DNA of 64,000 bases, from contig OX638335.1 of the NCBI GenBank assembly GCA_951812785.1, positions 1,443,653 to 1,507,652 of the forward strand, in the 5' to 3' direction. Under the pieces are notes generated by a model. That model saw nothing but the letters and a program-made list of their open reading frames with translations. It had not been told where the DNA came from and searched no databases. The position numbers and the translations under genes were made by a program. The stretch is from an uncultured Gammaproteobacteria bacterium (lineage in GTDB: Bacteria; Pseudomonadota; Gammaproteobacteria; UBA4575). Of the stretch, positions 8,537-49,384 are shown piece after piece (within the stretch, counting starts at the first letter, position 1; every line of letters starts with the position of its first letter).

Positions 8537-8612
8537 TGGCAGGCCAGGAGGGACTTGAACCCCCAACCTACGGTTTTGGAGACCGTCGCTCTGCCAATTG
8601 AGCTACTGGCCT
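8537..8612 (-). tRNA. tRNA-Trp (anticodon CCA)
   Basis: Reverse complement AGGCCAGTAGCTCAATTGGCAGAGCGACGGTCTCCAAAACCGTAGGTTGGGGGTTCAAGTCCCTCCTGGCCTGCCA folds as a cloverleaf with anticodon CCA. Confidence 0.93.
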
Positions 8613-8639
8613 ATTTTACTCTTTATTAATCAATCTGGA

Positions 8640-9830: not shown

Positions 9831-9895
9831 CGATCTCTACCTCTTAAATATTATTAATCATTAAATTAAAAACCATTTTGGGCCCAGTATCTATA

Positions 9896-9970
<75 letters not shown>

Positions 9971-10101
9971 AATGTAATCTTGCCTGACCACTCCTATCCT
10001 TGGACGCTAATTCAACTTCCCTATTATATATTTTCGACTATATACAGTGTTTCTAAATTCAAACCAGCTATTTGCCATTACATCTTATATCAGCATATAG
10101 T

Positions 10102-10175
10102 TGGAGCGGGTGATCGGGATCGAACCGACATCATCAGCTTGGAAGGCTGGGGTTCTACCATTGAACTACACCCGC
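10102..10175 (-). tRNA. tRNA-Gly (anticodon TCC)
   Basis: Reverse complement GCGGGTGTAGTTCAATGGTAGAACCCCAGCCTTCCAAGCTGATGATGTCGGTTCGATCCCGATCACCCGCTCCA. Confidence 0.9.
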
Positions 10176-10189
10176 ATCGCACTAATTTC

Positions 10190-10274
10190 TGGTGGAGGGG
10201 GTAGGATTCGAACCTACGAAGGCATAGCCAGCAGATTTACAGTCTGCCCTCGTTGACCGCTTGAGTACCCCTCC
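10190..10274 (-). tRNA. tRNA-Tyr (anticodon GTA), 85 nt with a long variable arm
   Basis: Reverse complement GGAGGGGTACTCAAGCGGTCAACGAGGGCAGACTGTAAATCTGCTGGCTATGCCTTCGTAGGTTCGAATCCTACCCCCTCCACCA. The Tyr-Gly-Thr-tuf order mirrors the E. coli tyrU-glyT-thrT-tufB cluster. Confidence 0.9.
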
Positions 10275-29500: not shown

Positions 29501-32500
29501 CAAAAACGAGGCTTTCTAAGCTGCCTGTGCGGCAGTAAACACACGCTTTCAGTACATAAACAAACGATGCACTTTCTAAGCTGCCTGTGCGGCAGTAAAC
29601 TTTTAGAAGGATGTGGATTATGTGTTTTAATCTTTCTAAGCTGCCTGTGCGGCAGTAAACGCACAAAATTAGGTATTGCTGGTCTATTAGAATTTCTAAG
29701 CTGCCTGTGCGGCAGTAAACTATTCGAGATTCAGGTGTTTCTTTTGACCTGATTTCTAAGCTGCCTGTGCGGCAGTAAACGACGCGCGTTAACTGCGCAA
29801 GAAGAATTGGTCTTTCTAAGCTGCCTGTGCGGCAGTAAACTTGTCATCGCGCTGCGCAAAGCGCGAGTGGTTTTTCTAAGCTGCCTGTGCGGCAGTAAAC
29901 GTCGTTCGAGTGCTTCAGCACCAGCAACACCCTTTCTAAGCTGCCTGTGCGGCAGTAAACACAATGTCAATAATCTCTGTACGACAATTAACTTTCTAAG
30001 CTGCCTGTGCGGCAGTAAACTGAAATTAGTGGTAGAATTAGGTGAAGAACTGTTTCTAAGCTGCCTGTGCGGCAGTAAACTCTGTCTGATTCGATCAATT
30101 CCGAAGTCCACATTTCTAAGCTGCCTGTGCGGCAGTAAACTCTGTCTGATTCGATCAATTCCGAAGTCCACATTTCTAAGCTGCCTGTGCGGCAGTAAAC
30201 TCTGTCTGATTCGATCAATTCCGAAGTCCACATTTCTAAGCTGCCTGTGCGGCAGTAAACACAGTGTGCATCTCATAACTAAGCAAGACACTTTTCTAAG
30301 CTGCCTGTGCGGCAGTAAACATAGTCGTTTAGCGAGAGGAGTAATTTGGGGATTTCTAAGCTGCCTGTGCGGCAGTAAACAGATGCTCAAAAATATGCAA
30401 CTTAGTAAGTTATTTCTAAGCTGCCTGTGCGGCAGTAAACGCGGTACTGCTGCTGTACGCGTGTAATCAACTTTTCTAAGCTGCCTGTGCGGCAGTAAAC
30501 ATTCAGCCTATCAACACATTACAACAGCAATCTTTCTAAGCTGCCTGTGCGGCAGTAAACGGACTTTACCGCGCGGACGAAAGCGATAGCGCCTTTCTAA
30601 GCTGCCTGTGCGGCAGTAAACTACCACAATGTGACCTTCATACTAACGGGGCATTTCTAAGCTGCCTGTGCGGCAGTAAACAAGATTTACATTAGCATTA
30701 CCAACGATCTGTTTTTCTAAGCTGCCTGTGCGGCAGTAAACCAAATGATCCTGTTACTCCGAAGCCCTTGACTTTTCTAAGCTGCCTGTGCGGCAGTAAA
30801 CGAAATCTAGATTTCGTAGTTCAAAGACGCGGATTTCTAAGCTGCCTGTGCGGCAGTAAACGTTACTGGTTAAGACTCTTTCAACAGATTGTTTTTCTAA
30901 GCTGCCTGTGCGGCAGTAAACGCCCCGAAAGTGGTCGATAACGACAAAAGTGCTTTCTAAGCTGCCTGTGCGGCAGTAAACGTCTATTACGTACCTAGAC
31001 TTGCCCCGAAAGTTTTCTAAGCTGCCTGTGCGGCAGTAAACTCAATACAAACAGAAAACGAATGAAACCAAAGTTTCTAAGCTGCCTGTGCGGCAGTAAA
31101 CGAATCTGCTTGGTTGCGTACGAGACGCGCTGATTTCTAAGCTGCCTGTGCGGCAGTAAACTCCCTGCGCGATTTCGTTGCCTGATTGATCCTTTTCTAA
31201 GCTGCCTGTGCGGCAGTAAACTAATGTTTGTCGTTTTGCTTGCGTCATACTGCTTTCTAAGCTGCCTGTGCGGCAGTAAACTCCGCGCAAAGATTTTCAC
31301 GTCGTGCCGCGCGTTTCTAAGCTGCCTGTGCGGCAGTAAACATTTTGAAAATGTCAAAAAAGGTGATTTGGGCTTTCTAAGCTGCCTGTGCGGCAGTAAA
31401 CCAATACCGCGCTCTGTATTCAAACTGGATCATTTTCTAAGCTGCCTGTGCGGCAGTAAACATAGCTAAACTTGGTAATGTAAATGAAGCTCATTTCTAA
31501 GCTGCCTGTGCGGCAGTAAACTTAGATGGTCAGTCGAAGACGCAAAAGCGGCTTTTCTAAGCTGCCTGTGCGGCAGTAAACGTGTCAGAATATATGGAAA
31601 AATTTGGCCGCTTTTTCTAAGCTGCCTGTGCGGCAGTAAACCTAGCAAGCCTTTAATACCTAACTTCGTCCGATTTCTAAGCTGCCTGTGCGGCAGTAAA
31701 CATATCACGAAGCAGCATTGGACATATTGGTAATTTCTAAGCTGCCTGTGCGGCAGTAAACTTTTAATGGCATTTAAAGATTCATTCTTGTCATTTCTAA
31801 GCTGCCTGTGCGGCAGTAAACACAATTAGTAAGAATAACCACAAATATAGAGTTTTCTAAGCTGCCTGTGCGGCAGTAAACTGGCAAGTCTATATGTAGA
31901 AGAAGAAGCGAAATTTCTAAGCTGCCTGTGCGGCAGTAAACTTAGTCAGTACAAACTACTTACGACCGATCTTTTTCTAAGCTGCCTGTGCGGCAGTAAA
32001 CATTACACAATCACGATTATGCAACTGTAGAGATTTCTAAGCTGCCTGTGCGGCAGTAAACTTTCTATAACAGCTTCAACTGAAGCAGTGTCATTTCTAA
32101 GCTGCCTGTGCGGCAGTAAACGCTATAGAACTAGAACAAGAAGAATTAGAATTTTTCTAAGCTGCCTGTGCGGCAGTAAACCAACTAGAGAGTGATACTT
32201 AAAAAATTAGGGTTTTCTAAGCTGCCTGTGCGGCAGTAAACTTTGTTATTGTCGCTTTCTGATGCGACTGGATTTTCTAAGCTGCCTGTGCGGCAGTAAA
32301 CATATCATCAATTATTTACAGTTAGGCACAGATTTTCTAAGCTGCCTGTGCGGCAGTAAACGTAACGAGACTGCTGGACCGCGCTGCGCCCAGTTTCTAA
32401 GCTGCCTGTGCGGCAGTAAACCATAGCACAGCACTAATACGGTGCACGCCGATTTTCTAAGCTGCCTGTGCGGCAGTAAACGAAATCTCGATTTCGTAGT

Positions 32501-34822
32501 TCAGAAGCGCGGCTTTCTAAGCTGCCTGTGCGGCAGTAAACTTGCAAAGTGGTTCACAGCAGCGCAGTTAGATTTTCTAAGCTGCCTGTGCGGCAGTAAA
32601 CAGCAACCGGAAATGTCAGGGATCGCGTTATTCTTTCTAAGCTGCCTGTGCGGCAGTAAACGAGTCGACAGCGCCAGATTTTGGTGCTGTCGATTTCTAA
32701 GCTGCCTGTGCGGCAGTAAACATGAAAGATTGGAAAGCAGCGGTACGAACCTTTTCTAAGCTGCCTGTGCGGCAGTAAACGGATTTCAAATCCCAGATAC
32801 GGCGGCAGTCGATTTCTAAGCTGCCTGTGCGGCAGTAAACCTATGATTATCGGATAAATTTTCATCATTATATTTCTAAGCTGCCTGTGCGGCAGTAAAC
32901 GGCATTTCAATGGGCTCGGAAGGCATGAAATATTTCTAAGCTGCCTGTGCGGCAGTAAACGTAACGAGACTGCTGGACCGCGCTGCGCCCAGTTTCTAAG
33001 CTGCCTGTGCGGCAGTAAACCATAGCACAGCACTAATACGGTGCACGCCGATTTTCTAAGCTGCCTGTGCGGCAGTAAACTGATGCCTGAGAGCGGGGCT
33101 GTTGTACCAAGTTTTCTAAGCTGCCTGTGCGGCAGTAAACACGTTCTCCCGCATACCCGTCAACTTCACCACTTTCTAAGCTGCCTGTGCGGCAGTAAAC
33201 TAAGAAAGAAGCAATGAGTGAGGCGGCTCGCCTTTCTAAGCTGCCTGTGCGGCAGTAAACTCGTGCCGATTAGTTGCACAGAAGTACTGCCTTTTCTAAG
33301 CTGCCTGTGCGGCAGTAAACAACTACTTAGATATGATAAGCGATTAGATAAATTTCTAAGCTGCCTGTGCGGCAGTAAACCCCGTCAAGTTATTATAACT
33401 GGTCCGCGCGGCTTTCTAAGCTGCCTGTGCGGCAGTAAACACTATGAGAGACAAAAAGAATTTGCGCAGAGCTTTTCTAAGCTGCCTGTGCGGCAGTAAA
33501 CGCCCGTCAAAACTTTGTGCAATATAAGGCATCTTTCTAAGCTGCCTGTGCGGCAGTAAACCGAAAAAAACAGATACACGTCTGTATTATATGTTTCTAA
33601 GCTGCCTGTGCGGCAGTAAACGTATCGTGCGCCGTATCTGGCGCGAGCCTCTTTTTCTAAGCTGCCTGTGCGGCAGTAAACTGAGCGCATGTTTACCGCC
33701 ACCTAAGTATTCTTTTCTAAGCTGCCTGTGCGGCAGTAAACGTGCAGTAGTGCCAAGCGGCAACGAAACTGCATTTCTAAGCTGCCTGTGCGGCAGTAAA
33801 CTGAGTGCGTGTTTGCCTCCGCCAAGGTACTCATTTCTAAGCTGCCTGTGCGGCAGTAAACCCAAAACTGGATGCATGAGCGGAGCAGCCATGTTTCTAA
33901 GCTGCCTGTGCGGCAGTAAACCAGTTAGTAAAAATGGTATGACATTCGGTTGCTTTCTAAGCTGCCTGTGCGGCAGTAAACACGCGGTCGAATGTCCAAG
34001 TATAGAGTCGCCATTTCTAAGCTGCCTGTGCGGCAGTAAACTTCTGCGTTTTGCCGCATCGATGACATCTGCGTTTCTAAGCTGCCTGTGCGGCAGTAAA
34101 CGCTTTGTTGAGCCTTTTTTTCGGCCAGCACCTTTTCTAAGCTGCCTGTGCGGCAGTAAACGGCTCTCAAATACGAGATAACACATCAATTGATTTCTAA
34201 GCTGCCTGTGCGGCAGTAAACCTAGCAACTTGCTTGCAAGTTGCTAGCCTAGAGTTTCTAAGCTGCCTGTGCGGCAGTAAACATGGCTAGTAATAAGATA
34301 CGAGCTCGTCGACTTTTCTAAGCTGCCTGTGCGGCAGTAAACCGGAGATAATTATGAGTTGGGGTAGTGCAATATTTCTAAGCTGCCTGTGCGGCAGTAA
34401 ACTGTGGATAGACGGCTATTTTTTAGCGACCGATTTTCTAAGCTGCCTGTGCGGCAGTAAACATGGTTTAGAGCAAGTTACAGATCGCGACTTATTTCTA
34501 AGCTGCCTGTGCGGCAGTAAACTCTGTCTGATTCGATCGATGCCAAAATCCACATTTCTAAGCTGCCTGTGCGGCAGTAAACTTAGCGAGAGGAGCAATT
34601 TGGGGCGGATTGGCTTTCTAAGCTGCCTGTGCGGCAGTAAACAAACGCAGAATGTCAGCGCGACAATACAAGCATTTCTAAGCTGCCTGTGCGGCAGTAA
34701 ACACCAGGGAGGATTGACCAAAAGATCGAGACAATTTCTAAGCTGCCTGTGCGGCAGTAAACCTTAAACACTACTATTATAGTGTTTGCGCATATTTCTA
34801 AGCTGCCTGTGCGGCAGTAAAC
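20575..34822 (-). CRISPR. type I-F CRISPR array, ~238 repeats and 237 spacers, transcribed right to left
   Basis: 28-nt repeat (minus-strand reading GTTTACTGCCGCACAGGCAGCTTAGAAA) on a strict 60-nt period with mostly 32-nt spacers. The distal repeat at 20575-20602 carries one substitution. The leader-proximal repeat ends at 34822, next to cas6f. Confidence 0.98.
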
Positions 34823-34952: not shown

Positions 34953-35504
34953 TCAAAACCAGGGGACGGTGGCAATTTTGGATAATCCAAATAAGTCAAA
35001 TTTTCCCGTGATGGGCTGACTGGTTAAATCACTAAATTTAATGTAGCGCCTGTGTTTATGTTTGTTCGATCCACTGATGAGTTCGATATAGGGATTCTCT
35101 AATCCTTGGGTAAACATCTTTGCACGGTATTGTTTAACCTCTTCCTCTGTGATTGAACCACGTTTTATCAATCGATTCAGTTTGGCTTGGCTCATGTTGG
35201 CTTGCACTCGGCTAACGGTGCGGTATTGAACGTTATCCGGTACAGGTTGAATCGCTGACACCTGACAGTAACCGCTCATGCCGCCAACCCAGTTTTTATC
35301 CTGTAATTGAGTCAATGCAGTTTGTGTTCCATGTATGCGCAACTGATCGCCCAACGTCTTTTGATAGGCTGGAAAGCTCACGCCAATGTCGGTGCTGTTC
35401 AGGTCACACAGGGCTTTGTGGAATTTGGCGTACAACGAATCCATAAGTATCCTGGATCGGAATTCCGGGTCGGGTAATAACGTGATATTCAAGTAGTTAT
35501 CCAT
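34953..35504 (-). CDS. cas6f: Cas6f (Csy4) crRNA endoribonuclease
   Basis: 183 aa; MDNYLNITLLPDPEF...GLSKIATVPWF matches the Cas6f N- and C-terminal signatures. Last gene of the operon, next to the leader. Confidence 0.93.
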   Translation of the reverse strand: MDNYLNITLLPDPEFRSRILMDSLYAKFHKALCDLNSTDIGVSFPAYQKTLGDQLRIHGTQTALTQLQDKNWVGGMSGYCQVSAIQPVPDNVQYRTVSRVQANMSQAKLNRLIKRGSITEEEVKQYRAKMFTQGLENPYIELISGSNKHKHRRYIKFSDLTSQPITGKFDLFGLSKIATVPWF

Positions 35505-35512
35505 ATATCTAC

Positions 35513-36538
35513 CTATTTATCACTTTCACCGAATACACCGCCACGTACCAATACCGCCATCACGTAATGTTCATCTTCCACGCGTTCCAATGCACCACCA
35601 CGCGCCCAATGATCAAAAAAGCTATAGAAGTCTTGTTTTTCTGCGGGTGTACGGAAGGCTTTACCCTGATTGGTCACTGCACCATAGGGTTCGATAGCGA
35701 TTGGGCCAACCGAAGCTTCCGGGTCAGCAAACTCTCCATACCAAGTATCAATGGTACGGATGGCATTACCTATTTTTTGCGAGTGCATGGCAGCAATATT
35801 ATTTACATGGTAAAGAATTTTGCTTTTCTCACCTTTACCTTTATCCAGCACGAGTTCTTCGCTGGGATAGACATCTTGTGCTTTACCCACTTTGGCATAG
35901 CAGGTGATATCGAGCATAAGAAAATCATCTTCACTGGCTAATGCTGTTGCAATGCGTTCTGCCAAGATAGTAACTTCCGCATCACTTGCTGACAGGTCAC
36001 GCGGATTAAACTCCAAAGCATTAAATTGCCAACTCTGCTCTGCACCCTGGTTTAAGGCGCTGACTTCGACCTGGATGTTTTCGGCTCCAAAGCGGTTGCG
36101 CCAAAGGAATCGTGCATTGGCGATGTTCAAGGCATAACGCTTTGCCAGTTCTCTCATACCCCGTGTTTGCAGATAGCCATTGACTGCTGCTTGGTAGCTT
36201 TGTTTGAATAAGGCATTGTTGCAGGCTGAAGGCTGTTGCAAGCCACCCAATACTTTTAAGGTAAAGTGTAATTTAAGCGTGTCTTGTTCTGTACCCAAAG
36301 CACAGGCATCTATCGTTTGTAAATTGGGTTTTTCAACTTCTGCGTTTAATTTTTGCGGGTCTTTTTTTATCGCCTCCTTTAGGCGGTTAGCGATCGTCCC
36401 CCGCACTGATTTCTCTTGCAGTTTCAGCGGTGTCACTTCATTTTTATTATCCCAACTTGTGCCATACATATAGCCATCACTGGGTACCAGTTTTTTTTCA
36501 AATGCGAGTACAGATGCAATATTGTCTTTCTTAGCCAT
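35513..36538 (-). CDS. cas7f: Cas7f (Csy3) Cascade backbone subunit
   Basis: 341 aa, in the conserved I-F gene order. Confidence 0.9.
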   Translation of the reverse strand: MAKKDNIASVLAFEKKLVPSDGYMYGTSWDNKNEVTPLKLQEKSVRGTIANRLKEAIKKDPQKLNAEVEKPNLQTIDACALGTEQDTLKLHFTLKVLGGLQQPSACNNALFKQSYQAAVNGYLQTRGMRELAKRYALNIANARFLWRNRFGAENIQVEVSALNQGAEQSWQFNALEFNPRDLSASDAEVTILAERIATALASEDDFLMLDITCYAKVGKAQDVYPSEELVLDKGKGEKSKILYHVNNIAAMHSQKIGNAIRTIDTWYGEFADPEASVGPIAIEPYGAVTNQGKAFRTPAEKQDFYSFFDHWARGGALERVEDEHYVMAVLVRGGVFGESDK

Positions 36539-36556: not shown

Positions 36557-37489
36557 TTAAAAATCAAATTCACTTGACGGATCTTTTGCAACCGTATTAA
36601 GGGCTACACATTGGTAAAAGTTACTAGCCTTATCAACTTGATAGCACCACAACATGTCGCTTATTGATTCAAAGCGATGAGGCATTTTGAATTCACCTAA
36701 GGTCACCAGGCTTTCAGCGAAGCAATGTGGTTGATCTGGGTCACGTTGGTTTTTGGCTTGGCCTAATTCACTAATACCGTGGAAGCCTGTAGCAATGGGT
36801 ACAATCCAGCCTAGGGGCTTGTCAGTTTGGCTTTTGCGGCGTTTTTTCCATAACACGCCATCTTTTGTTTGTTCGCAACGATGATGAATTGCCACATAGT
36901 CAATTAACGCAGCCATAGCATCATCCTGGCCTTGCCCCATCGCTTCAATCATTAGGTCGCGGCGCTCAATCAGCACATAACCTGGCATAATTTTTCGCGT
37001 AAACCGACGTAAATCCTCTTCGTTGTTATCTTCAAGTACAAAAATAGCAGGTGGGCTAAAGCTTTGAATATCCCCACCCGCCATTTTTATTTTGCTGTTG
37101 AGTAAATGGCTTATTTGCGCTTTTATTGCATCTTCTTGCTCCTGGCTTATCCCCTGCAATTCCAGTAATAAAGACACCTCAAGATGGCAACGAGCTTCCT
37201 CAATAAACGATGAACGCGATCCGGTTTTATCTAAGGGGTTACCGGTACCTATAATGGATGACACAAAATCATTTGTTCCACGATAGGTTTGTAAGTTCAT
37301 TTGGTGGCTCACCACACCGGTTGCCGTCACCTTTACATCTATGCCACCCTCATTTAATTTACGTTGTAGGGCGTGAGTCGCCCCTAACCATGCGGTCATC
37401 GCGGGAAAGCCAATGGTAAAAGGGCTGGAGAGGGCATTAGCGTTATGAATGTGAAGATGTGGAATCAGCAGTATCTTTTTATAGCTCAT
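36557..37489 (-). CDS. cas5f: Cas5f (Csy2)
   Basis: 310 aa; overlaps cas8f stop as ATGA; I-F order. Confidence 0.88.
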   Translation of the reverse strand: MSYKKILLIPHLHIHNANALSSPFTIGFPAMTAWLGATHALQRKLNEGGIDVKVTATGVVSHQMNLQTYRGTNDFVSSIIGTGNPLDKTGSRSSFIEEARCHLEVSLLLELQGISQEQEDAIKAQISHLLNSKIKMAGGDIQSFSPPAIFVLEDNNEEDLRRFTRKIMPGYVLIERRDLMIEAMGQGQDDAMAALIDYVAIHHRCEQTKDGVLWKKRRKSQTDKPLGWIVPIATGFHGISELGQAKNQRDPDQPHCFAESLVTLGEFKMPHRFESISDMLWCYQVDKASNFYQCVALNTVAKDPSSEFDF

Positions 37490-38802
37490 CGTAACGCCTC
37501 CTTGTGTTTCACGACCTGCTTATGGATATGCTTAAATTCGCCGTCTGAAAATATAAAAGTTTTTTTGCCGAGCAATTTTTCATAACCATTAAAGATAAAT
37601 TTAGCGATGTCAGTGCATAGCATATCTAACCAGTCATTTTCATCTTCTCGTTGCGCTTCATTGGCCATACAGAGCCATATTTTTTGAGTAGGGTTTAACT
37701 GGCTAGTATCTGGGTTGTATTGCGCTTCGCTTACGCTTCTTACTCGCCACATTCTTTCAATAATTCGATCCATGATGGCCTGGTAATATTCATCGCGCGC
37801 ACTCCGGATATGCCTATTATTTTTGTGGTTAAGAAATATTAAGTCATGCAAGGCATAAAACAAATCTCTACATTGAAAATAACTGAACGATTGGCTAAAA
37901 AAGTCCACTGTTGGAAAGTGGATGTCACGCTTGATTAATTTGGGTGGCTCGCTCGGTAGCAGATGCACTTTGCCACCGTTTTGATTGTTCAAAACGCTAA
38001 TATTCTGCGGCTTGGTACCGCCATAACCCATCGTGGTTAAGTTGGCCAGTTGCTTATAACCCCCTATATACATTTCATTGTTCTTTTCACATTTCGCAAA
38101 GTCTCTTGCGCCCGCATCCGGACCTATATACATTTCATTGTTCTTTTCACAAGTTCTGGCAATTTTTGTTTCTTCAGAAAAACGGATGGTATCAATCCTT
38201 TTTCTCAGCTCGAATACTATGCCAGATGCAGACAGTATCGATAATTGGTGGTAGCCATTTTCTACAGGAAAGTAGACCTGTTTAATTTTGGAACTCGTTA
38301 TGCTATCAGCATCGCTATTCGTCATGGCTAAAAAGCCTTCTTTTAAAGTGCTGTATGACTCTGCTTTAATCTTGAGAAGTTGTTGTGCTAAATCAGAATC
38401 TTGCTCGATGTGGCTAAGTAAGGTTTGCCCATCTTGCATATTAAGCGTCAAAAATTTATAGACATCTAATGCGGCAGCATTGCCCAGTGCATCGGCCTCC
38501 ACAACAACGTTGCCACTGCGTAAATAGCCATCGTTGCTTGCTTGGCTATCGGCAATAATTGATGAGGCATAGCCATTCTTATTTTTACGTGAACTAGGAT
38601 GGCTGAAAGTACATGGATGCGTGGATATGGACATTTGCCCCGCTCGCTTGGCGGCATTTGGCAACCAATTTTCCAAACTAAATTGCTCGGAGCACTCCTG
38701 TTCCTTAGCCTGGATCATCGTTTCATCTGCACCAGCATGAAGATTTTTCTTTAACCAAGCCGCTTTACGCTTGTCAAAGAATTCAGCTATTACTTTCTCC
38801 AT
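37486..38802 (-). CDS. cas8f: Cas8f (Csy1) large subunit
   Basis: 438 aa, first gene of the csy operon. Contains an internal 29-bp perfect direct repeat (see findings). Confidence 0.88.
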   Translation of the reverse strand: MEKVIAEFFDKRKAAWLKKNLHAGADETMIQAKEQECSEQFSLENWLPNAAKRAGQMSISTHPCTFSHPSSRKNKNGYASSIIADSQASNDGYLRSGNVVVEADALGNAAALDVYKFLTLNMQDGQTLLSHIEQDSDLAQQLLKIKAESYSTLKEGFLAMTNSDADSITSSKIKQVYFPVENGYHQLSILSASGIVFELRKRIDTIRFSEETKIARTCEKNNEMYIGPDAGARDFAKCEKNNEMYIGGYKQLANLTTMGYGGTKPQNISVLNNQNGGKVHLLPSEPPKLIKRDIHFPTVDFFSQSFSYFQCRDLFYALHDLIFLNHKNNRHIRSARDEYYQAIMDRIIERMWRVRSVSEAQYNPDTSQLNPTQKIWLCMANEAQREDENDWLDMLCTDIAKFIFNGYEKLLGKKTFIFSDGEFKHIHKQVVKHKEALR

Positions 38803-39013
38803 CTACATTATCCTTTTTACGCTAATAATTTTAGCCAAAAGCCAGTTATAAAAACTTTGCAGAAGCATCTTTAGGTGATGATACTTGCTGGTTGAATCCT
38901 GAGACATCTCATCAAGAACGAGTACTTCTTGCTGGCGAGAAACCGTTAGTGTCTCTTTTCTCACATACCGCTTAGCCATATTTTTTATACCCTACTTTAT
39001 CATTGATAGGTCA

Positions 39014-39042
39014 AGCATAAGCATAAAGATCAATATTTTCAA
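39014..39042 (-). promoter_or_regulatory. candidate sigma70 promoter for the csy operon (TTGAAA-17-TATGCT)
   Basis: -35 TTGAAA (complement of 39037-39042), 17-nt spacer, -10 TATGCT (complement of 39014-39019). It directly abuts the CC PAM of the psi-spacer target. Confidence 0.45.
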
Positions 39043-39077
39043 CCATTTAACTATTGGTATAAAATACTCCAACTACT
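39043..39077 (+). promoter_or_regulatory. CC PAM plus seed-matched target site of the adjacent psi-spacer; overlaps an extended -10 (TGgTATAAA, 39055-39063) that faces the mini-CRISPR
   Basis: Positions 1-14 of the site match psi-spacer 39096-39128 except at positions 6 and 12; 22/33 overall; CC immediately 5'. Confidence 0.55.
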
Positions 39078-39156
39078 GAAAAAGCAGCTTAGAAAATTTA
39101 CCTATTCGTGGTTATTTATCCATTTACTGCTTACTGCCGCATAGGCAGCTTGAACC
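39068..39156 (+). ncRNA. degenerate mini-CRISPR (psiR1-psiS-psiR2), candidate crRNA-like regulator of the CreR/CreA type
   Basis: psiR1 at 39068-39095 matches 19/28 but ends in a perfect GCAGCTTAGAAA 5' handle. 33-nt psi-spacer at 39096-39128. psiR2 at 39129-39156 matches 22/28 and keeps the intact hairpin CTGCCGCATAGGCAG. Orientation is opposite to the cas genes. Confidence 0.6.
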
Positions 39157-39182
39157 ATCTACCTTGATCTCCAGTAGGTGGT

Positions 39183-42100
39183 TCACACTCTCACCAATCC
39201 GAATTGGTCGTTATATTTATATTTAGCGCTTTCATCGTGCCAAAAACTTAACTCGCCATAGCGCAACGATGCCCTACGCATACTCATATCTTGTGCGTCT
39301 GCCATACTTGCTATTTCTGCTTCAAAGTCGCGTTGTAGCCATAGCCGTTTGCTTGCTTCTGTAGCCAACTGCACACGATCAATACCAAGCGGTAGTTCAC
39401 GTGGCACAGGAAAGCCTTTTTCGTTTTTTTCACAAAAGGTACATGCCTGCTTATTTTCATCAAAGGCCAAAAACACTTTCAAGCTCGGCGGAGATTTTCT
39501 AAACGACACTATGTGTTGCGGGTATGCCGTCAAAAACCAGGCTTCACGCAAATAGCCTTGTAGCTGAGCAGGGCCGTTACCGTCTCGTCCATAGTTAGCC
39601 AATAACTTGCAAATAACATAATGTTCTAAATCTGCCAATTGTTTTTTAGGCTGTAGATCTTTTGATTTTTGGATACGTGCAATAGCATCTACACGCTGTA
39701 ATAAGGCATCCGCATCCAGCAAGTCATTCAAGTTGTGGCTTGCCAACCTGATTTGGTCTTCAAAACCTGGCCTGTTAAATACTTTACCGTTTTCAAGGTG
39801 TTTATCGCGTACCCCCCGCCAGTTGTATTGCAGCAAACTGATGTTAGGCACTTCCACGCCGATTTTACGATGACGACGCACACGTCCTGCCAATTGGATA
39901 ATTGAACGATACGAAGATGGTTCCACAACTGCCCAGTCAAAATCGTGGTCGCGACCAACCTCTTCTACGGGAGTTGCCACTAACACAAACAGCACATGTT
40001 TAACCTGTGGTTCGGTTCGCTTTATATGCTCAAGGTGTTGACGAATAACAGTGTTTAGAAAAGCTTTGGGTTGTTCATCTATGTCTTCTTTACGTTTTAA
40101 TACTTGGCCTAGGTGCTGTTCTTGTTTATGGCGCATCAGCAAGACTTGCTGACTGTGGTACGGCATCGTTCTTATCTGAACGTCTGCTGGCAGATCCATC
40201 TTTAGCAAGTAACGGGCTAAGGCTATGCAGGGTTGAATATTCGCCATGCGCACCACGCCAAACGACACCGCCAATTGGCTTTGTTGATCAACCATGTGAT
40301 GGTGCTGATGTTTAGTGAGAACACTATCAGTAATGATTTTAAAATAGGCTTGTTGTTTACTCGCTATAACGTTTTCATCGTTAGGGCTATGGGTAAAATC
40401 AGCAAAGATTTGTTCACAAGGAGTAATGTCAGCTTTGCGCTTAACCGGTTGTTTGACTAATTTAGCAACGCGTTTTTCGACAAATTTCACGTGTTCACTG
40501 CGGTAAGCAGGTATTGCATCCCGCACTTGCAAGCCATGATTACTTGCGACGACTGTGTTAAATTCATCTATCCATGCACAGCCCACCGTCGCACTGGCAT
40601 CACGGCTTTTACAGTAGATTAGCCATCCATCTCGGTACGCTTTGAAGTAGCCTTCAGCTAAATCAGGCGTAATGGTTGCCGAGGAGATCATCACCTTTCG
40701 ACCTAACATACCTGCTAAGTGAATGAGGCGTCCAATAGCGACTAAATCCTCACCGGTAAAATCGTCAACTTCATCAATTACTAGATCAGAAGACATTAAC
40801 CGTAGAGTAGGCAAAATATAGCGCCCCCCACGCTTAGTCTCAGTTGCCGCCATAAGATGGTCGATGGTGCAGGCTAATACCGGCGCATAGAGGAATTTTT
40901 TATCACGTTGTTCACGCAGTACGGTAGTCATACCTTCTTCAGGAATAGCGCAATCGTAATCGACTTCTTCATCCAACAATGTTTCTTGTGACTCTGAACC
41001 ACTTGCTTCAAAACTCAGTTCTTCTGTCTCAGTTTTTGCTTGCTGATGTAACGCCATGACGGCACGCGAGCCGATCAGTACCGCCAGTTCGGTTGCATCC
41101 AAACCCACTCGCTCACGGTATTCATCACCTGTTTGTAATGTGAGGGTACGTAAGCCCAGAGCCAAAATAAAACGCAGGCTATTCCCATCATTTGATACAG
41201 CCTGCATCACTTTGGCATTGGCAAAGGTTTTACCGCAGCCCGTACTTGCCATATTCACAGCGAAAAAACCTTGCTTTTGCGTATTATTCTTGCGCCAATG
41301 TTTAATGTTATCTACGGCTTTATCTTGCCAACGAAATTCGCCAGGGCTTAGTTTTTTCAATGCTGTGATGTCTTGCGCTATGGGTGGTTCAGCTTCAAAT
41401 GCCGGTAGCAAATGTGCAGTGTTTAAACCATGCCTTGCAACACCAACCAAATGCTCATCCAGCTTTTGCTTTAAAGCTTTAGTTTTAAAATCGGTATTGG
41501 CAAATAAGCCGAGCTTGTCTTGCCATTTTTTATCGGCATTTTGTGATGAGTAATAATGATCACCCAGCATTACGCATAACCGCGCATAATTTAATACTGA
41601 TCGGTAACTGCCATCATTGAGTGATTGCAATACCTGCGATTCACAAGCTAGTAAGCGTTGTGACCATTTTTTAATTTGCTTTAACCAAGGTTGCGAAGCG
41701 CTGAGTAGCCCATTAGGAAAATTAAAACATTGTTCAACCCGCTGCTTATATTCAGCCTGATCATAGTTGTTTTCGTAACCCCACTGCTGAGTAACCAGGC
41801 ATAAAACATTATCAATGTTAGGACAGCATTCAGCCCGCATATCCACATCTTTATTTAGCGGTAAACGATGATGGGAGACAACCAGCCAAGCCACTAGTTT
41901 AGCTATCGGTGGTAAATTTTTTAGCGGATTAGTCTGCTGTTTACTGGCAATGGCTTTTATCTTGGCTTCATCAATGTCGCCTTTTGCTAAGGTCTCAAGC
42001 CAACCACTATCGTTTACATTGTTTGTATCGCCTTGATGCATTTGAATAAGTGCATTCAGCAATAAACACGAAATCCATTCATGCCGAATAGGGTCACCTT

Positions 42101-42545
42101 TAAAGCCCATTTTATTCTTAGGCTTCAATTTTTCCTGGAACAGTTGGCTGGCTTTACCCCAATCATGCAAAAGCGCGGCAATAGCCACCAAGGCTTTAAT
42201 TAAGGGTAAATACGCCCAGTCATTTTCAATATGAGAATTTAATAAATTTCGCCTCGTCGTGTTAACGGGCACGGCTCCTTCGCGATCAAATTTCTGACGA
42301 TTACCCACCACCCAAACCAACTCACTACGCGCACGGCTGCGTATCCAATGACAGCTTACCGCAGTGTTTTTACTGGCAGTTTTTCTAAGTAATTTTTTTA
42401 CTGCCAGTAAGCCTTCCTGGGTGATAATTGTTTGCCAGGTGTTATCGCCAATGCGGTTGGCGAAGGCATCAAGCACACGGCGACTGCGGGCGTGGGCTTT
42501 TTTTTCGCATTGACTAACAAAGGTAACCATCATGACCAAAGACAC
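39183..42545 (-). CDS. cas3: Cas2-Cas3 fusion (Cas3f) helicase-nuclease
   Basis: 1120 aa with an N-terminal Cas2 domain (..VSQCEKKAHARSRRVLDAFA..HWIRSRARSELVWVVGN..), HD nuclease and SF2 helicase. The ORF-track start is GTG at 42545; ATG codons 4-5 codons downstream are more likely the real start. Confidence 0.93.
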   Translation of the reverse strand: MSLVMMVTFVSQCEKKAHARSRRVLDAFANRIGDNTWQTIITQEGLLAVKKLLRKTASKNTAVSCHWIRSRARSELVWVVGNRQKFDREGAVPVNTTRRNLLNSHIENDWAYLPLIKALVAIAALLHDWGKASQLFQEKLKPKNKMGFKGDPIRHEWISCLLLNALIQMHQGDTNNVNDSGWLETLAKGDIDEAKIKAIASKQQTNPLKNLPPIAKLVAWLVVSHHRLPLNKDVDMRAECCPNIDNVLCLVTQQWGYENNYDQAEYKQRVEQCFNFPNGLLSASQPWLKQIKKWSQRLLACESQVLQSLNDGSYRSVLNYARLCVMLGDHYYSSQNADKKWQDKLGLFANTDFKTKALKQKLDEHLVGVARHGLNTAHLLPAFEAEPPIAQDITALKKLSPGEFRWQDKAVDNIKHWRKNNTQKQGFFAVNMASTGCGKTFANAKVMQAVSNDGNSLRFILALGLRTLTLQTGDEYRERVGLDATELAVLIGSRAVMALHQQAKTETEELSFEASGSESQETLLDEEVDYDCAIPEEGMTTVLREQRDKKFLYAPVLACTIDHLMAATETKRGGRYILPTLRLMSSDLVIDEVDDFTGEDLVAIGRLIHLAGMLGRKVMISSATITPDLAEGYFKAYRDGWLIYCKSRDASATVGCAWIDEFNTVVASNHGLQVRDAIPAYRSEHVKFVEKRVAKLVKQPVKRKADITPCEQIFADFTHSPNDENVIASKQQAYFKIITDSVLTKHQHHHMVDQQSQLAVSFGVVRMANIQPCIALARYLLKMDLPADVQIRTMPYHSQQVLLMRHKQEQHLGQVLKRKEDIDEQPKAFLNTVIRQHLEHIKRTEPQVKHVLFVLVATPVEEVGRDHDFDWAVVEPSSYRSIIQLAGRVRRHRKIGVEVPNISLLQYNWRGVRDKHLENGKVFNRPGFEDQIRLASHNLNDLLDADALLQRVDAIARIQKSKDLQPKKQLADLEHYVICKLLANYGRDGNGPAQLQGYLREAWFLTAYPQHIVSFRKSPPSLKVFLAFDENKQACTFCEKNEKGFPVPRELPLGIDRVQLATEASKRLWLQRDFEAEIASMADAQDMSMRRASLRYGELSFWHDESAKYKYNDQFGLVRV

Positions 42546-42699
42546 CCGTTACCCAGATAGGTTAGAATCCGGTTGTCGTCTGGCCAAGAATCGACAACCA
42601 TCATCTTGATGTTTACAGCACAAACGAAATGCTGCATCCAAAGGGATTTGCGAGTGACATTGCTTACCACACAATGTTTCAGCTCACCCCTTAGGCGAC

Positions 42700-42728
42700 A
42701 TATTAGAAGCAATCTAAAAATATTTCAA
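42700..42728 (-). promoter_or_regulatory. candidate sigma70 promoter for cas2-3 (TTGAAA-17-TAATAT)
   Basis: -35 TTGAAA (complement of 42723-42728), 17-nt spacer, -10 TAATAT (complement of 42700-42705). It is separated by one nucleotide from the CC PAM of the psi-spacer target. Confidence 0.45.
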
Positions 42729-42730
42729 TC

Positions 42731-42752
42731 CCTATAAAGAGTTATTTTAGCA
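42731..42752 (+). promoter_or_regulatory. CC PAM plus seed-matched target of psi-spacer 42800-42819
   Basis: CC at 42731-42732; the next 10 nt (tataaagagt) match the psi-spacer perfectly; 15/20 overall. Confidence 0.55.
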
Positions 42753-42771: not shown

Positions 42772-42847
42772 AATATCTGCCGTATAGGCAGCTTAGAAAT
42801 ATAAAGAGTCGTTTTACACGTTCACTGCCGCACAGGCAGCTTATTGA
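42772..42847 (+). ncRNA. degenerate mini-CRISPR with a 20-nt psi-spacer, second candidate CreR/CreA-like crRNA-like gene
   Basis: psiR1' at 42772-42799 (22/28) keeps a perfect hairpin plus handle CTGCCGTATAGGCAGCTTAGAAA. psi-spacer tataaagagtcgttttacac at 42800-42819. psiR2' at 42820-42847 is GTTCACTGCCGCACAGGCAG with an intact hairpin, then degenerates to cttattga. Sits in a 345-bp gap between cas1 and cas2-3, in the opposite orientation. Confidence 0.6.
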
Positions 42848-42890: not shown

Positions 42891-43829
42891 CTATTCGCCA
42901 AGACTAACTTGCTTCACCTGTTCAAACATAAAATCCAGTGCTTTGTGCTGGGTAAAGTTTTGCAGACATTGTTGGCGAAACTCCTGTTCGCTGGAGTTTT
43001 CCTTAGCACAGATAAAAGCCCAGGGCAGAATCAATGTGTCCTTTACCAAATCGGCAATATCAAAGACCAATGCACCACGACGAGTTTTACCATGCATCAC
43101 GGCAAACCCATGTGGAATGCCCAGTACCCAAAGGGTGGTTGCGGCTAAACCATAAGCCAGGTAATTGCCATGATTGAGAAAGGCATTGGCAGTATCTTCG
43201 GCTTCGTGGGTGCGGGTGAAGTCGCCATACTCGGTGCGGGTAGCGGCCAGTTTATACAACCATTTGGTGAGCTGGGCTTCGGTGTTGAGTAGTTCACTGA
43301 CTCTGGTGCAATGTTTTATTCTGTTGATGGCGTTATCTAATGCGCTTTTTATTGATGGGTCGTCGCTTGAAAAGCCTTCGCTCTTGAGATCGCGGTCACG
43401 TGACCAAACTTGTTGTAAAAATTCAATTCTTGCCTGCTGGAATTGTTTAGCAGCTTGCAAGCGCTTACTGTCGTCAAACCAGAATTGCATCCACCCTTGC
43501 ATATATTCGGTGGGACGATATTCGCTTTGTGGTGTCAGCCATTCAATTTCATTAGCCATAAGTAATGGTGTGCCACCTCCACCACAAAAACCAACTAATA
43601 CACCAGCTTGTGCGAGCATACGCATAGCTGCTTGAGTAATAGATGTGCCTGTTCCCAATAACAAGCAGGTGGTATTGGCAATCGGGATATTCCAATACTG
43701 GTTTTCTTCTTTGGCTTCAGTAAGGTACAAAACACGGCCATCTTTTTGCATGACGCGACATTTTTCAAGGTAATAAATGTTCGCTCGCTTAGAATGGAGG
43801 ATGGCTTTCAGGTCAGTCAGTTGATCCAC
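42891..43829 (-). CDS. cas1: Cas1 integrase (I-F type)
   Basis: 312 aa, MDQLTDLKAILHSKRANIYYLEKCRV...; first gene of the cas operon. Confidence 0.93.
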   Translation of the reverse strand: MDQLTDLKAILHSKRANIYYLEKCRVMQKDGRVLYLTEAKEENQYWNIPIANTTCLLLGTGTSITQAAMRMLAQAGVLVGFCGGGGTPLLMANEIEWLTPQSEYRPTEYMQGWMQFWFDDSKRLQAAKQFQQARIEFLQQVWSRDRDLKSEGFSSDDPSIKSALDNAINRIKHCTRVSELLNTEAQLTKWLYKLAATRTEYGDFTRTHEAEDTANAFLNHGNYLAYGLAATTLWVLGIPHGFAVMHGKTRRGALVFDIADLVKDTLILPWAFICAKENSSEQEFRQQCLQNFTQHKALDFMFEQVKQVSLGE

Positions 43830-47227: not shown

Positions 47228-47314
47228 TGGTGCCCGGGGCCGGAGTCGAACCGGCACGCCCGTGAAGGCGAGGGATTTTAAGTCCCTTGCGTCTACCAAT
47301 TCCGCCACCCGGGC
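47228..47314 (-). tRNA. tRNA-Leu (anticodon TAA)
   Basis: Reverse complement GCCCGGGTGGCGGAATTGGTAGACGCAAGGGACTTAAAATCCCTCGCCTTCACGGGCGTGCCGGTTCGACTCCGGCCCCGGGCACCA. Confidence 0.9.
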
Positions 47315-47349
47315 ATTGGGTATTGCGGTAATTTTTATTCAAAGTAACT

Positions 47350-47423
47350 TGGAGGCGAGTAGCGGAATCGAACCGCTGTACACGGCTTTGCAGGCCGCTG
47401 CATCACCACTCTGCCAACTCGCC
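47350..47423 (-). tRNA. tRNA-Cys (anticodon GCA)
   Basis: Reverse complement GGCGAGTTGGCAGAGTGGTGATGCAGCGGCCTGCAAAGCCGTGTACAGCGGTTCGATTCCGCTACTCGCCTCCA. Confidence 0.9.
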
Positions 47424-47726
47424 GTGGTTTTTACTGATTAATCTGTCTGCAAGTTCTGTGCTTGCCCAGATTATTATATTACAAGTTACTTTATGAAGTA
47501 TTAGTAACCTCATATTTTTACTAATTTTTTATCTTAATTCAGGCTAAAGATTTGTCGTTAACCTGTTTTGCGAAGCTGCGAATTATAACCAAAATTTTTC
47601 TGACTGTTTGGTTTATTTAAAACCTTATTTCTATTTCACTGTCATATGGATTGACAAGGCCGCATCTGTAATTGTCTCTTACAGCGATTGTTTTAAACGG
47701 CTTTTTTGGCTGTGAATTATTTGATT

Positions 47727-47783
47727 TGGAGCGGGAAACGAGATTCGAACTCGCGACCCCAACCTCGGTAAGGTTACGCTGTT
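47727..47783 (-). repeat. partial 3' copy of tRNA-Gly(GCC), a likely att-site duplication
   Basis: 39 nt are identical to the 3' end of the intact tRNA-Gly at 49310-49384 (TGGAGCGGGAAACGAGATTCGAACTCGCGACCCCAACCT), followed by about 11 similar nt. Confidence 0.7.
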
Positions 47784-47897
47784 AAACCTGATTTTTCAAG
47801 TTTTTCCATAGACTTAGATGGATTTTCACACATGCAAAATAGTCATACATCGACACATGAGCATTATGTAATTTAGCCAAACATATATGTATTTAAA

Positions 47898-48323
47898 CTA
47901 TAAAAGCTTCGACTCTTCTAACTTTTCAATCACTTTCTTTGTAGAACATATACAAGTTTTAGCTTTATCTATAGTAAATTCTCTATCCAGATGATAATCA
48001 GCATCAACTCGATTCTGTCTAGCCTGATCTAAAATATATGATATTCCGAGTAATTTTATTTGTGTTTCTTGTGGCAGATGACTTGTACAATTTTGGAATG
48101 CACCGATTAACCTTCTATGGACGCCACCAACATTTTGATGTGGTTTAGTCGGAAAATTTGACGCTACGTTGTTACATATATGATAGACACAATAATAAGC
48201 TCTACTTGCCGCAACTCGCGCGCAGGATTCTGCATGTAATACTGTTGAATCATTAAGAATTGATTGTGCAAAGTCTAGAAATAACTTTGGATCAAATGAC
48301 GTTTCAGACATCTCCAGGCGCAA
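47898..48323 (-). CDS. hypothetical 141-aa protein, downstream gene of a two-gene islet cassette
   Basis: ORF overlaps the upstream gene by 20 nt. No recognisable family from sequence alone. Confidence 0.4.
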   Translation of the reverse strand: MRLEMSETSFDPKLFLDFAQSILNDSTVLHAESCARVAASRAYYCVYHICNNVASNFPTKPHQNVGGVHRRLIGAFQNCTSHLPQETQIKLLGISYILDQARQNRVDADYHLDREFTIDKAKTCICSTKKVIEKLEESKLL

Positions 48324-49080
48324 ACTGAATTGTAAAATTATTCAACGTACACTTGCTAAGACCACTTTCGGCTAAAGCGTCAGCAATTTTAAAATTCAAA
48401 TCTACAACTTTATTAATACTTGCTGAAATATAATACTTAAAGCTAACCCACGAAGAATCATCATCTTCCTGGATATTTACTTCCAGACCTCTAAACAAAT
48501 AATTAGACTCTACTTTTATATCATCAGTAACTATTGTTTCCACAATATTCAACATATTAATTATGTCATTTTCCGCCAAATCTTGGTCTTCAATGTAAGA
48601 TCTAACAGAATTTATTTGATATTCAAAATCCTTAAATGTTTCATCAGTCAGCTTTTGGAGCTTAACAAAGTGATCACTAGCTTCTTTAAATTTTCCAGAT
48701 TTAATAGCATAGTCAATTACATCATATAAAACTTTAATATTGCCAGGATCTCTAGCATTCACTCGTTTTGCAATCTCATACGCTTTTCCAAAACAACCAA
48801 AATATGACAAAAAAACAGCATAATTACTGTTAGCATTTTGATCGTATTGAGCAAGCTTCAATGCTTTCTCATGATTATCAACCATACTATTATAATCACG
48901 TGAAACTGCACCTAACATTCCATAAAGCTCGTATGCATTTTTGGAATCTACTCTCATTAAGTCACTAATCTGCTTTTTAATACGTAAAATTTCAAGTTCA
49001 GTAATATCGCGCTTAGAATTAAAAATTCCTTGTAGTTCAGTGTGAATGCCACTGTAGATTGTTGCAGGCTCTTGGCTCAT
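48304..49080 (-). CDS. hypothetical 258-aa protein, upstream gene of the two-gene islet cassette
   Basis: Helical, repeat-like composition. Sits between the tRNA-Gly partial copy and the intact tRNA-Gly. Confidence 0.4.
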   Translation of the reverse strand: MSQEPATIYSGIHTELQGIFNSKRDITELEILRIKKQISDLMRVDSKNAYELYGMLGAVSRDYNSMVDNHEKALKLAQYDQNANSNYAVFLSYFGCFGKAYEIAKRVNARDPGNIKVLYDVIDYAIKSGKFKEASDHFVKLQKLTDETFKDFEYQINSVRSYIEDQDLAENDIINMLNIVETIVTDDIKVESNYLFRGLEVNIQEDDDSSWVSFKYYISASINKVVDLNFKIADALAESGLSKCTLNNFTIQFAPGDV

Positions 49081-49309
49081 ATTCTTTAGAAATAATATTG
49101 ATGAAATAGTTTCTCAGTTCAACTGAAGCTATCGGCCTTATATATGACTTAGCCACACCAGACATCTGATACAAGAATCTATTTTGATAATTATTGCAGA
49201 TGGCTTATATCAATTTGATCACAATACCAATGAAAAAGACACAGATACTGTTTTCGTATCCACTTACTTTTCAAATGGATACTTAAGCTATTGACTTATA
49301 ATGAATTCT

Positions 49310-49384
49310 TGGAGCGGGAAACGAGATTCGAACTCGCGACCCCAACCTTGGCAAGGTTGTGCTCTACCACTGAGCTATTCCCGC
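49310..49384 (-). tRNA. tRNA-Gly (anticodon GCC)
   Basis: Reverse complement GCGGGAATAGCTCAGTGGTAGAGCACAACCTTGCCAAGGTTGGGGTCGCGAGTTCGAATCTCGTTTCCCGCTCCA. Gly-Cys-Leu order downstream of pgsA matches E. coli glyW-cysT-leuZ. Confidence 0.92.

Follow-up and report, generated by a model that had tools for sequence, protein, structure and literature searches.

What is a pair of degenerate CRISPR repeats doing in the gap between two cas genes, far from any array? The question is raised by a 64,000-nucleotide stretch of DNA from an uncultured gammaproteobacterium (contig OX638335.1; hereafter the window, whose coordinates are used throughout), in which a two-repeat unit at 39068-39156, on the plus strand, lies between cas2-3 and csy1 (cas8f) of a type I-F system encoded on the minus strand. 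The evidence set out below leads us to regard this mini-CRISPR as, most probably, the gene for a regulatory guide resembling a CRISPR RNA (crRNA), of the CreR/CreA class, that would repress the Cascade operon of its own system.

The true repeat of the array in the window (GTTTACTGCCGCACAGGCAGCTTAGAAA; CRISPR-DR4 in Rfam, 46.8 bits) is the reference for reading this unit. The upstream degenerate repeat, psiR1 (39068-39095, plus strand; TCCAACTACTGAAAAAGCAGCTTAGAAA), agrees with it at 19 of 28 positions, among them all of the final 12 bases, and its last 8 nucleotides (39088-39095) are a perfect copy of the predicted 5′ handle, CTTAGAAA. The downstream degenerate repeat, psiR2 (39129-39156, plus strand; GCTTACTGCCGCATAGGCAGCTTGAACC), agrees at 22 of 28 positions; its 3′ handle is degenerate, and its Cas6f-type hairpin (39134-39148) is intact, folding at -8.6 kcal/mol, the same as the true repeat. 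In Rfam, psiR2 also scores against CRISPR-DR4, in plus-strand orientation and below threshold (39134-39151, 22.4 bits versus 46.8 for true repeats). The two units are 61 nucleotides apart, inside the cas locus and outside the array, and they enclose a spacer-like insert, the pseudo-spacer or guide (39096-39128, plus strand), with the handle upstream of it and the Cas6f hairpin downstream. A preliminary description of this DNA had given the positions and sequences of psiR1, pseudo-spacer, psiR2 and target correctly, and it was likewise right that psiR1 retains a perfect handle and psiR2 its hairpin with a degenerate handle.

Its account of psiR1 and of the guide nevertheless needs to be qualified. 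The psiR1 hairpin had been called destroyed; the sequence indeed folds no better than shuffles (-1.3 kcal/mol), but four of its five stem pairs are kept, with one A.C mismatch. Because the hairpin is retained in 22 of 30 related psiR1 units, and because the stem is intact (-6.0 kcal/mol) in a close relative represented by two ENA metagenome contigs (L081 and L082, approximately 88% identical in the mini-CRISPR region), its loss is a peculiarity of the window copy and not part of the design. The pseudo-spacer does measure 33 nucleotides in the window, as had been stated, but it consists of a 26-nucleotide core (39096-39121) and a remainder that derives from a tandem 7-nucleotide duplication of TTACTGC (39124-39130 and 39131-39137) at the 5′ edge of psiR2; the pseudo-spacer of L081 is 26 nucleotides long, and the duplication has thus stretched the window guide from 26 to 33. 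Since Cas6f is known to cut the repeat at the 3′ base of its stem, the boundaries of a mature crRNA-like RNA can be predicted: it would span approximately 61 nucleotides (39088-39148, plus strand), comprising the 8-nucleotide handle, the 33-nucleotide guide and a 20-nucleotide hairpin, and would begin with CUUAGAAA. Directly 3′ of psiR2 is a 12-bp hairpin (39152-39184, plus strand) that takes in GAACC, the degenerate handle, and overlaps the stop codon of cas2-3. The 135-nucleotide fold has a z-score of -4.0, the hairpin is kept in L081 through compensatory changes, and by inspection its G.U pairs function on the plus (guide) strand only; this hairpin may terminate the guide transcript or form its 3′ end.

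The guide has a partial match a short distance upstream in the same gap. A CC protospacer adjacent motif (PAM; 39043-39044) is followed by a target on the plus strand (39045-39058) to which the guide is identical at positions 1-5, 7-11 and 13-14, that is, at 12 of the first 14 positions, with mismatches at 6 and 12. The full comparison with 39045-39077 gives 22 of 33 identical positions, in agreement with the preliminary description, as does the seed pattern; owing to the duplication, however, the identities at guide positions 24-33 reflect the similarity of the start of psiR1 to the duplicated start of psiR2, and represent no guide-target pairing. Only 0.15% of shuffled seeds reach an equal CC-flanked match within the gap (P ~0.0015). 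The scan for this seed behind a CC that had been proposed earlier, run here over the 64-kb window, returned one occurrence against 0.04 expected, and no other CC-flanked site in the window rises above 8 of 10 seed matches to the guide. We also considered phage-borne guide mimics (Cracr). There are 13 exact handle-plus-seed matches in IMG/VR, none of which has repeat-like flanks; their flank scores are 7-13, compared with at least 15 in real units, and we rejected them as chance AT-rich matches.

As the strict definition of a CreR has it, the target adjoins a promoter-like site facing the effector cas genes. On the minus strand, the -35 element TTGAAA (39042-39037) abuts the PAM and is followed by a 17-nucleotide spacer and the -10 element TATGCT (39019-39014). 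This site (39014-39042) had been noted before and was recovered by a consensus promoter scan, but the first cistron that it would serve is not cas8f, as had been supposed; it is an open reading frame (ORF) of 58 codons, ORF58, to which we return below. On the plus strand, a promoter-like site for the mini-CRISPR (39036-39065; TTTTCA-18-TAAAAT, or alternatively TGgTATAAA at 39055-39063) was also recovered by the scan; its spacer and -10 overlap the guide's own target, which bears out the earlier reading, and the -10 region is conserved in L081. The same scan detected no second consensus minus-strand promoter between the target and csy1, and no terminator was detected between ORF58 and csy1.

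Comparison with other loci provided the most informative evidence on whether this arrangement is under selection. We gathered 80 I-F loci by way of Cas8f. In approximately 30 of them cas2-3 and csy1 are separated by 220 bp or more, and two repeat-like units 42-61 nucleotides apart were identified in the gap of 24 loci, including the window. In Gammaproteobacteria the mini-CRISPR lies on the strand opposite to the cas genes; in Campylobacterota the two share a strand. That seed and target should co-vary among related loci had been set as a test beforehand, and they do: in 23 of the 24 loci the guide has its own CC-flanked target in the same gap, matched at 9-10 of 10 seed positions, and the spacers are all different. 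Guide positions 1-5, 7-11 and 13-17 are matched in 80-100% of loci and positions 6, 12 and 18 in 17%, 43% and 29%, respectively, while matching past approximately position 19 is random. The dips at 6, 12 and 18 are the footprint of the every-sixth base that is flipped out in Cascade. Covariation is also visible between the window and its close relative: the window has T at seed position 3 of guide and target alike, and L081 has A in both. Promoter geometry recurs as well; within 0-3 nucleotides of the PAM, the pattern TTGnnn, 16-18 nucleotides, TAnnnT is present in 15 of 21 loci versus 4% of GG sites in the same regions.

The repeat units themselves are conserved in complementary parts. Across 30 units, the psiR1 handle is 98% conserved versus 61% for the psiR2 handle, and the 5′ flank and hairpin of psiR2 are 75% and 93% conserved versus 41% and 83% for psiR1; stems are preserved by compensatory variants (CTGCT/AGCAG, CTACC/GGTAG and CCGCC/GGCGG). 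This family-wide profile fits the production of one mature crRNA from the psiR1 handle and the psiR2 hairpin. The selective conservation that the preliminary description had inferred from the window copy therefore stands for handle and hairpin, except that the lost psiR1 hairpin on which it partly relied is atypical. Pseudo-spacer lengths cluster at 14-15, 19-20, 25-27 and 31-33 nucleotides. These values are 32 less a multiple of 6, the series to be expected if Csy complexes shorten by the loss of whole Cas7f subunits. The distance from target to psiR1 varies from approximately 36 to 126 nucleotides in other loci, and many close Cas8f relatives lack the entire gap. Taken together, the recurring matches, the covariation, the conservation profile and the PAM-promoter geometry argue that the element is a functional guide aimed at a promoter and not a relic.

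From established I-F biochemistry, and from experiments on the same architecture elsewhere, a mechanism can be proposed that covers transcription, processing, binding free of cleavage, and repression. The mini-CRISPR would be transcribed on the plus strand from the promoter that overlaps its own target; Cas6f would cleave at the intact psiR2 hairpin, psiR1 would contribute the 5′ handle, and the resulting RNA would load into the Csy (I-F Cascade) complex. This complex would then recognise the CC PAM and pair with the target at the 12 matched positions, which is predicted to be enough for stable binding and too few for a full R-loop and recruitment of Cas2-3. So bound, it would occupy the edge of the minus-strand -35 and the -10 of the mini-CRISPR, and therefore both the guide gene and ORF58-csy1-csy2-csy3-csy4 would be repressed. 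The outcome would be negative feedback on Cascade synthesis, which may be lifted once anti-CRISPRs inhibit Cascade or a large number of crRNAs titrate it. Several features of the window copy weigh against this interpretation. As psiR1 lacks a canonical hairpin in the window, Cas6f may make the 5′ handle inefficiently, and another route to the 5′ end would be needed; the duplication yields a guide that is 1 nucleotide off the length series of its relatives; pairing ends at position 14, where most relatives pair to approximately 17; and the promoter calls are consensus matches only, at 9 of 12 positions. The broken psiR1 stem, the 7-nucleotide duplication and the short pairing are signs of wear, and the window copy could be partly decayed.

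The gene that stands first behind the predicted repressed promoter deserves separate attention. ORF58 (38803-38979, minus strand; 58 amino acids) ends in a TAG stop codon that abuts the csy1 ATG. The loci with guides fall into two classes, in which either csy1 itself starts approximately 60-66 nucleotides from the PAM or an ORF of 55-74 amino acids does, overlapping or abutting csy1; the distance from the PAM to the csy1 ATG is 60-66 nucleotides in most ORF-less loci, and that from the PAM to the first ATG is 58-66 nucleotides in the evaluated ORF-bearing loci, 46 in L102 and 63 in the window. The first survey placed the window, L009, L010, L019, L022, L025 and L028 in the ORF-bearing class. 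A hidden Markov model built from five other loci, with the window excluded, recovered ORF58 as the top non-training match among 11,289 six-frame pieces (E = 1.6e-8), and a profile search of 5.8 billion proteins identified 17 members, all annotated as hypothetical and without Pfam domains. Single-sequence searches were far less sensitive (one homolog with a word-indexed search and four with exhaustive phmmer), and the family was revealed only by the profile of locus ORFs. It occupies the same position in 13 loci (those of the first survey together with L081, L083, L086, L087, L102 and L103), with identical gene order in every context examined, including the complete genome of Marinomonas mediterranea.

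The ratio of nonsynonymous to synonymous substitution rates (dN/dS) of ORF58 is 0.27 and 0.21, versus 0.96-0.98 in the other two frames, and together with its conservation this signal identifies ORF58 as a real and conserved small protein. Members share the motif K-K/R-Y-V-K-K-E-T-x-T-x-x-R-T-E-E at the N terminus and an amphipathic helix at the C terminus. The AlphaFold model (predicted local distance difference test score 69.6) consists of a single long helix (residues 28-57) after a disordered N-terminal segment that is of low confidence yet highly conserved; the helix is amphipathic and rich in Trp and Lys, with no classical transmembrane segment (maximum Kyte-Doolittle value over 19 residues at most 1.07). 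Searches with 15 family members against Pfam, PADLOC, PDB sequences and PHROGs returned nothing significant, only noise-level matches to a PHROG (E = 0.064) and in Pfam. Neither homology to KilAC/CreP nor the architecture of CreT (Shine-Dalgarno sequence, mini-ORF and hairpin) was found in the window; a three-codon, CreT-like mini-ORF in the leader (ATGATAAAGTAG, 39003-38992) was rejected, given that it lacks a Shine-Dalgarno sequence and has not been preserved in L081. All 13 ORF58 members for which the sequence is uncut have a matching guide, and guides also occur without the ORF. In the Cas8f tree, the ORF-bearing loci belong mostly to one clade, where they alternate with near-identical relatives without any of the gap. 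Close relatives gain or lose the module whole. ORF58 may be a CRISPR-repressed toxin or an accessory subunit. Cargo of other kinds was observed in the same place in other loci; in Campylobacterota, L046 and L064 carry an ORF of approximately 135 amino acids with a PBECR3 (Barnase/EndoU/RelE-like nuclease) domain between a same-strand mini-CRISPR and csy1, and the gap of L061 holds a toxin-type pair of DUF4258 and helix-turn-helix (HTH)/MqsA-like proteins (123 and 147 amino acids).

If ORF58 is a toxin, the same guide and the same repression would serve a different purpose. One may postulate a CrePA-like addiction or abortive-infection module in which the guide acts as antitoxin (CreA), such that when Cascade is disabled by an anti-CRISPR or by mutation ORF58 is derepressed and the cell is arrested or killed. 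This scenario overlaps with that of a self-repressing guide and differs from it in what the circuit is for; we consider it possible but rather doubtful. CreT (in WCHA45, PMC10097628, and in Pseudomonas aeruginosa, bioRxiv 10.64898/2026.06.02.729485) and CreP (in ADP1, bioRxiv 10.1101/2024.01.05.574328) occupy the position that ORF58 holds here, toxin-type cargo (the PBECR3 nuclease-like ORF, and DUF4258 with its HTH antitoxin) is found there elsewhere, and the Trp/Lys-rich amphipathic helix resembles many small toxic peptides. The selection on ORF58 as a protein, the gain and loss of the module as a unit, and the co-occurrence of a matching guide with 13 of 13 evaluable members are also what an addiction module would lead one to expect, although this co-occurrence could reflect shared ancestry. 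On the other hand, ORF58 has no similarity to KilAC/CreP or to toxin families in Pfam, PADLOC, PDB or PHROGs, and its helix is insufficiently hydrophobic for a classical membrane toxin. It also lies directly against csy1, and neither a terminator nor a second promoter was detected in between; any production of Cascade would therefore entail production of ORF58, which is more in keeping with a cistron of accessory or coupling function than with a potent toxin.

The unit might instead have no function at all. That it is an inert relic, a decaying array fragment or failed spacer acquisition whose spacer matches its target by accident, is in keeping with the broken psiR1 hairpin, the 7-nucleotide duplication that disturbs psiR2, the pairing shorter than that of relatives, and the many close Cas8f relatives that manage without the whole gap. 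We nonetheless judge it very unlikely: an accident of this kind is hard to reconcile with the shuffling statistics for the seed within the gap or with a pattern that is unique in 64 kb, and still less with an arrangement of guide, target, PAM and promoter that 23 of 24 loci, each with a different spacer, have in common, and with pairing that is maintained in L081 by a compensating substitution. The decay is moreover selective, as handle and hairpin are retained exactly where a mature guide needs them. A further alternative is that target plus psiR1 and spacer plus psiR2 arose by tandem duplication of a spacer and repeat, leaving a resemblance that is not selected as pairing. The target does lie approximately one spacer length upstream of psiR1, the similarity at positions 24-33 is repeat-derived, and by inspection the sequence before the PAM ends in ..CAACC, much as psiR2 ends in ..GAACC. 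The identity, however, is confined to the PAM-proximal part and spares exactly positions 6 and 12, which neutral decay would not do, and the covarying change in L081 points to continuing selection; we hold this the most improbable of the explanations considered. As a general account of where targets come from it was rejected, in view of the variable distance between target and psiR1 in other loci and of the absence of any detectable third repeat-like unit upstream of the target. A guide that regulates its own Cascade operon thus remains our preferred interpretation of the unit at 39068-39156.

The window contains a second mini-CRISPR, overlooked in the preliminary description, which stands on the window alone. 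The gap between cas1 and cas2-3, unusual at 345 bp, houses on the plus strand a unit (42772-42847) composed of psiR1′ (42772-42799), a 20-nucleotide guide (42800-42819; TATAAAGAGTCGTTTTACAC) and psiR2′ (42820-42847). The two repeats match the true repeat at 22 of 28 and 24 of 28 positions, and both hairpin and handle of psiR1′ are intact. The guide pairs at positions 1-10 and 13-17 with a target at 42733-42752 (plus strand; PAM at 42731-42732), a match that was equalled in 3 of 2000 shuffles, and a promoter-like site facing cas2-3 (42700-42728, minus strand; TTGAAA at 42728-42723, 17 nucleotides, TAATAT at 42705-42700) begins 2 nucleotides from the PAM. The unit is absent from three ORF58-family loci, in which cas1 overlaps cas2-3, and from five metagenomic Cas2-3 relatives. 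The leader of approximately 160 nucleotides between this predicted promoter and the cas2-3 start contains, on the minus strand, a 15-codon mini-ORF (42660-42613) and a hairpin of 7-8 bp (approximately 42571-42599). A guide facing cas2-3 suggests that the supply of the nuclease can come under the same control. We advance, tentatively and as a conceivable extension of our interpretation, that the ORF58 family (55-74 amino acids) constitutes a new class of CRISPR-repressed small proteins, either toxins or effector-associated factors, encoded at the head of the Csy operon, as its first cistron, in such marine Gammaproteobacteria as Marinomonas, Pseudoalteromonas, Endozoicomonas, Pseudidiomarina and Methylomarinum, and that with Cascade control of cas2-3 by the second guide it would form a two-guide circuit through which the effector senses its own inhibition and governs both interference arms and the payload.

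The surroundings of these elements are those of a complete type I-F system, identified from Pfam matches and the ORF list and encoded on the minus strand: cas1 (42891-43829), cas2-3 (39183-42545), csy1 (37486-38802; Cas_Csy1, the effector gene downstream of the predicted repressed promoter), csy2 (36557-37489; Cas_Csy2), csy3 (35513-36538; Cas_Csy3) and csy4 (cas6f; 34953-35504; Cas_Csy4), so that the effector genes reach down to 34953. After csy4, an array of 238 repeats extends over 20575-34822 on the same strand, with a repeat spacing of 60 nucleotides in 230 cases and 61 in five, and also of 59 and 56. The three most distal repeats (at 20575, 20695 and 20755) are variants, and Tandem Repeats Finder reported neighbouring units of 100% identity at 21594-21743 and 28312-28460, which indicates duplicated spacers. 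Clusters of tRNA genes, four on one side and three on the other, flank the CRISPR-Cas region (8540-10274 and 47231-49384). The closest Cas8f proteins, 66-67% identical, come from metagenome-assembled genomes of Arenicellales and Methylobacter. The closest metagenomic relative of Cas2-3 (84% identity, locus L111) has as its upstream neighbour not cas1 but an unrelated ORF (L111 positions 1100-1500) that stops just before the Cas2-3 start; the layout of the locus therefore varies even between near relatives. In three Marinomonas-type loci (L108, L109 and L110), a gene for a BrxR/WYL-domain regulator lies directly upstream of cas1 (approximately 1330-2300) and puts a protein regulator beside a guide-regulated system.

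Self-repression of Cascade by dedicated guides, and the toxins guarded in this way, are now viewed as a layer of defence against phages that encode anti-CRISPRs. Earlier I-F examples come from Acinetobacter and Pseudomonas; with the window and 30 comparable loci, this logic extends to many marine Gammaproteobacteria and, in a same-strand arrangement, to Campylobacterota. ORF58, found in every case under a guide of this type, is a concrete candidate for a CRISPR-repressed payload of a new kind, and the presence of the module in a culturable host, Marinomonas mediterranea, makes direct testing feasible.

How does the element relate to the systems already described? Shmakov et al. 2023 (PMC10120712) reported type I-F1 regulatory mini-arrays between cas3 and cas8f, with validation in P. 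aeruginosa YL84, and repression that depends on Cascade and guide and proceeds without Cas3 has been documented in YL84 (PMC10120712), for CreTA of Acinetobacter WCHA45 (PMC10097628) and for CrePA of A. baylyi ADP1 (bioRxiv 10.1101/2024.01.05.574328). Across the published work on mini-arrays, CreR and CreA, the location in the cas3-csy1 gap, the CC PAM, mismatches at 6 and 12, guides of 20 and 26 nucleotides, and a patchy distribution are all reported. Because the window element displays every sequence-level feature of this class, we assign it to the known mini-arrays, CreRs and CreAs, and the CreR/CreA-like identity put forward in the preliminary description is supported by the comparative data; whether it is better called a CreR (pure autoregulation) or a CreA (toxin guard) depends on ORF58. 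With the I-F1 mini-arrays it shares two repeat-like units in the cas2-3/csy1 gap, transcription opposite to cas3, a partial spacer match to a CC-flanked site at the predicted cas8f-operon promoter, mismatches at 6 and 12, a better-conserved handle in the seed-adjacent unit, and patchiness among close relatives. It differs in its organism, which is not related to Pseudomonas or Acinetobacter, in the sequence of its guide, in the loss of the psiR1 hairpin, and in a protein-coding ORF that intervenes between promoter and csy1.

The likeness to CreR, the Cas-regulating RNA that Liu et al. (bioRxiv 10.1101/2023.03.10.532045) demonstrated for types I-B, I-E and V-A and predicted for I-F, lies in a degenerate mini-CRISPR with a guide of limited complementarity to an effector cas promoter, and in the prediction of autorepression relieved by anti-CRISPRs or by crRNA competition. 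CreR is, however, defined by the lack of a co-occurring toxin gene, whereas the operon predicted to be repressed in the window starts with the conserved hypothetical ORF58. CreTA (PMC10097628; bioRxiv 10.64898/2026.06.02.729485) has in common with the window the gap, a divergent creA and a PAM-flanked partial match, and its guides are 20 or 26 nucleotides long, where the core of the window guide is 26; its payload, by contrast, is a small RNA toxin with a Shine-Dalgarno sequence, a mini-ORF of 5-11 codons and a hairpin, and the leader in the window has no conserved element of that type. The CrePA module of ADP1 (Shu et al., bioRxiv 10.1101/2024.01.05.574328) shares the I-F cas3-csy1 gap, a creA divergent from an ORF between target and csy1, the CC PAM, a -35 (that of a promoter-like site in the window) adjoining the target, and confinement to I-F loci. 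CreP, however, is a KilAC-domain protein of 103 amino acids encoded approximately 120 bp from the target, while ORF58 has 58 amino acids and neither a KilAC nor any other domain, and abuts csy1. The literature searched yielded no account of the ORF58 family, and it is here that the locus departs from its known counterparts: the operon predicted to be under control opens with a conserved, previously undescribed protein of 58 residues.

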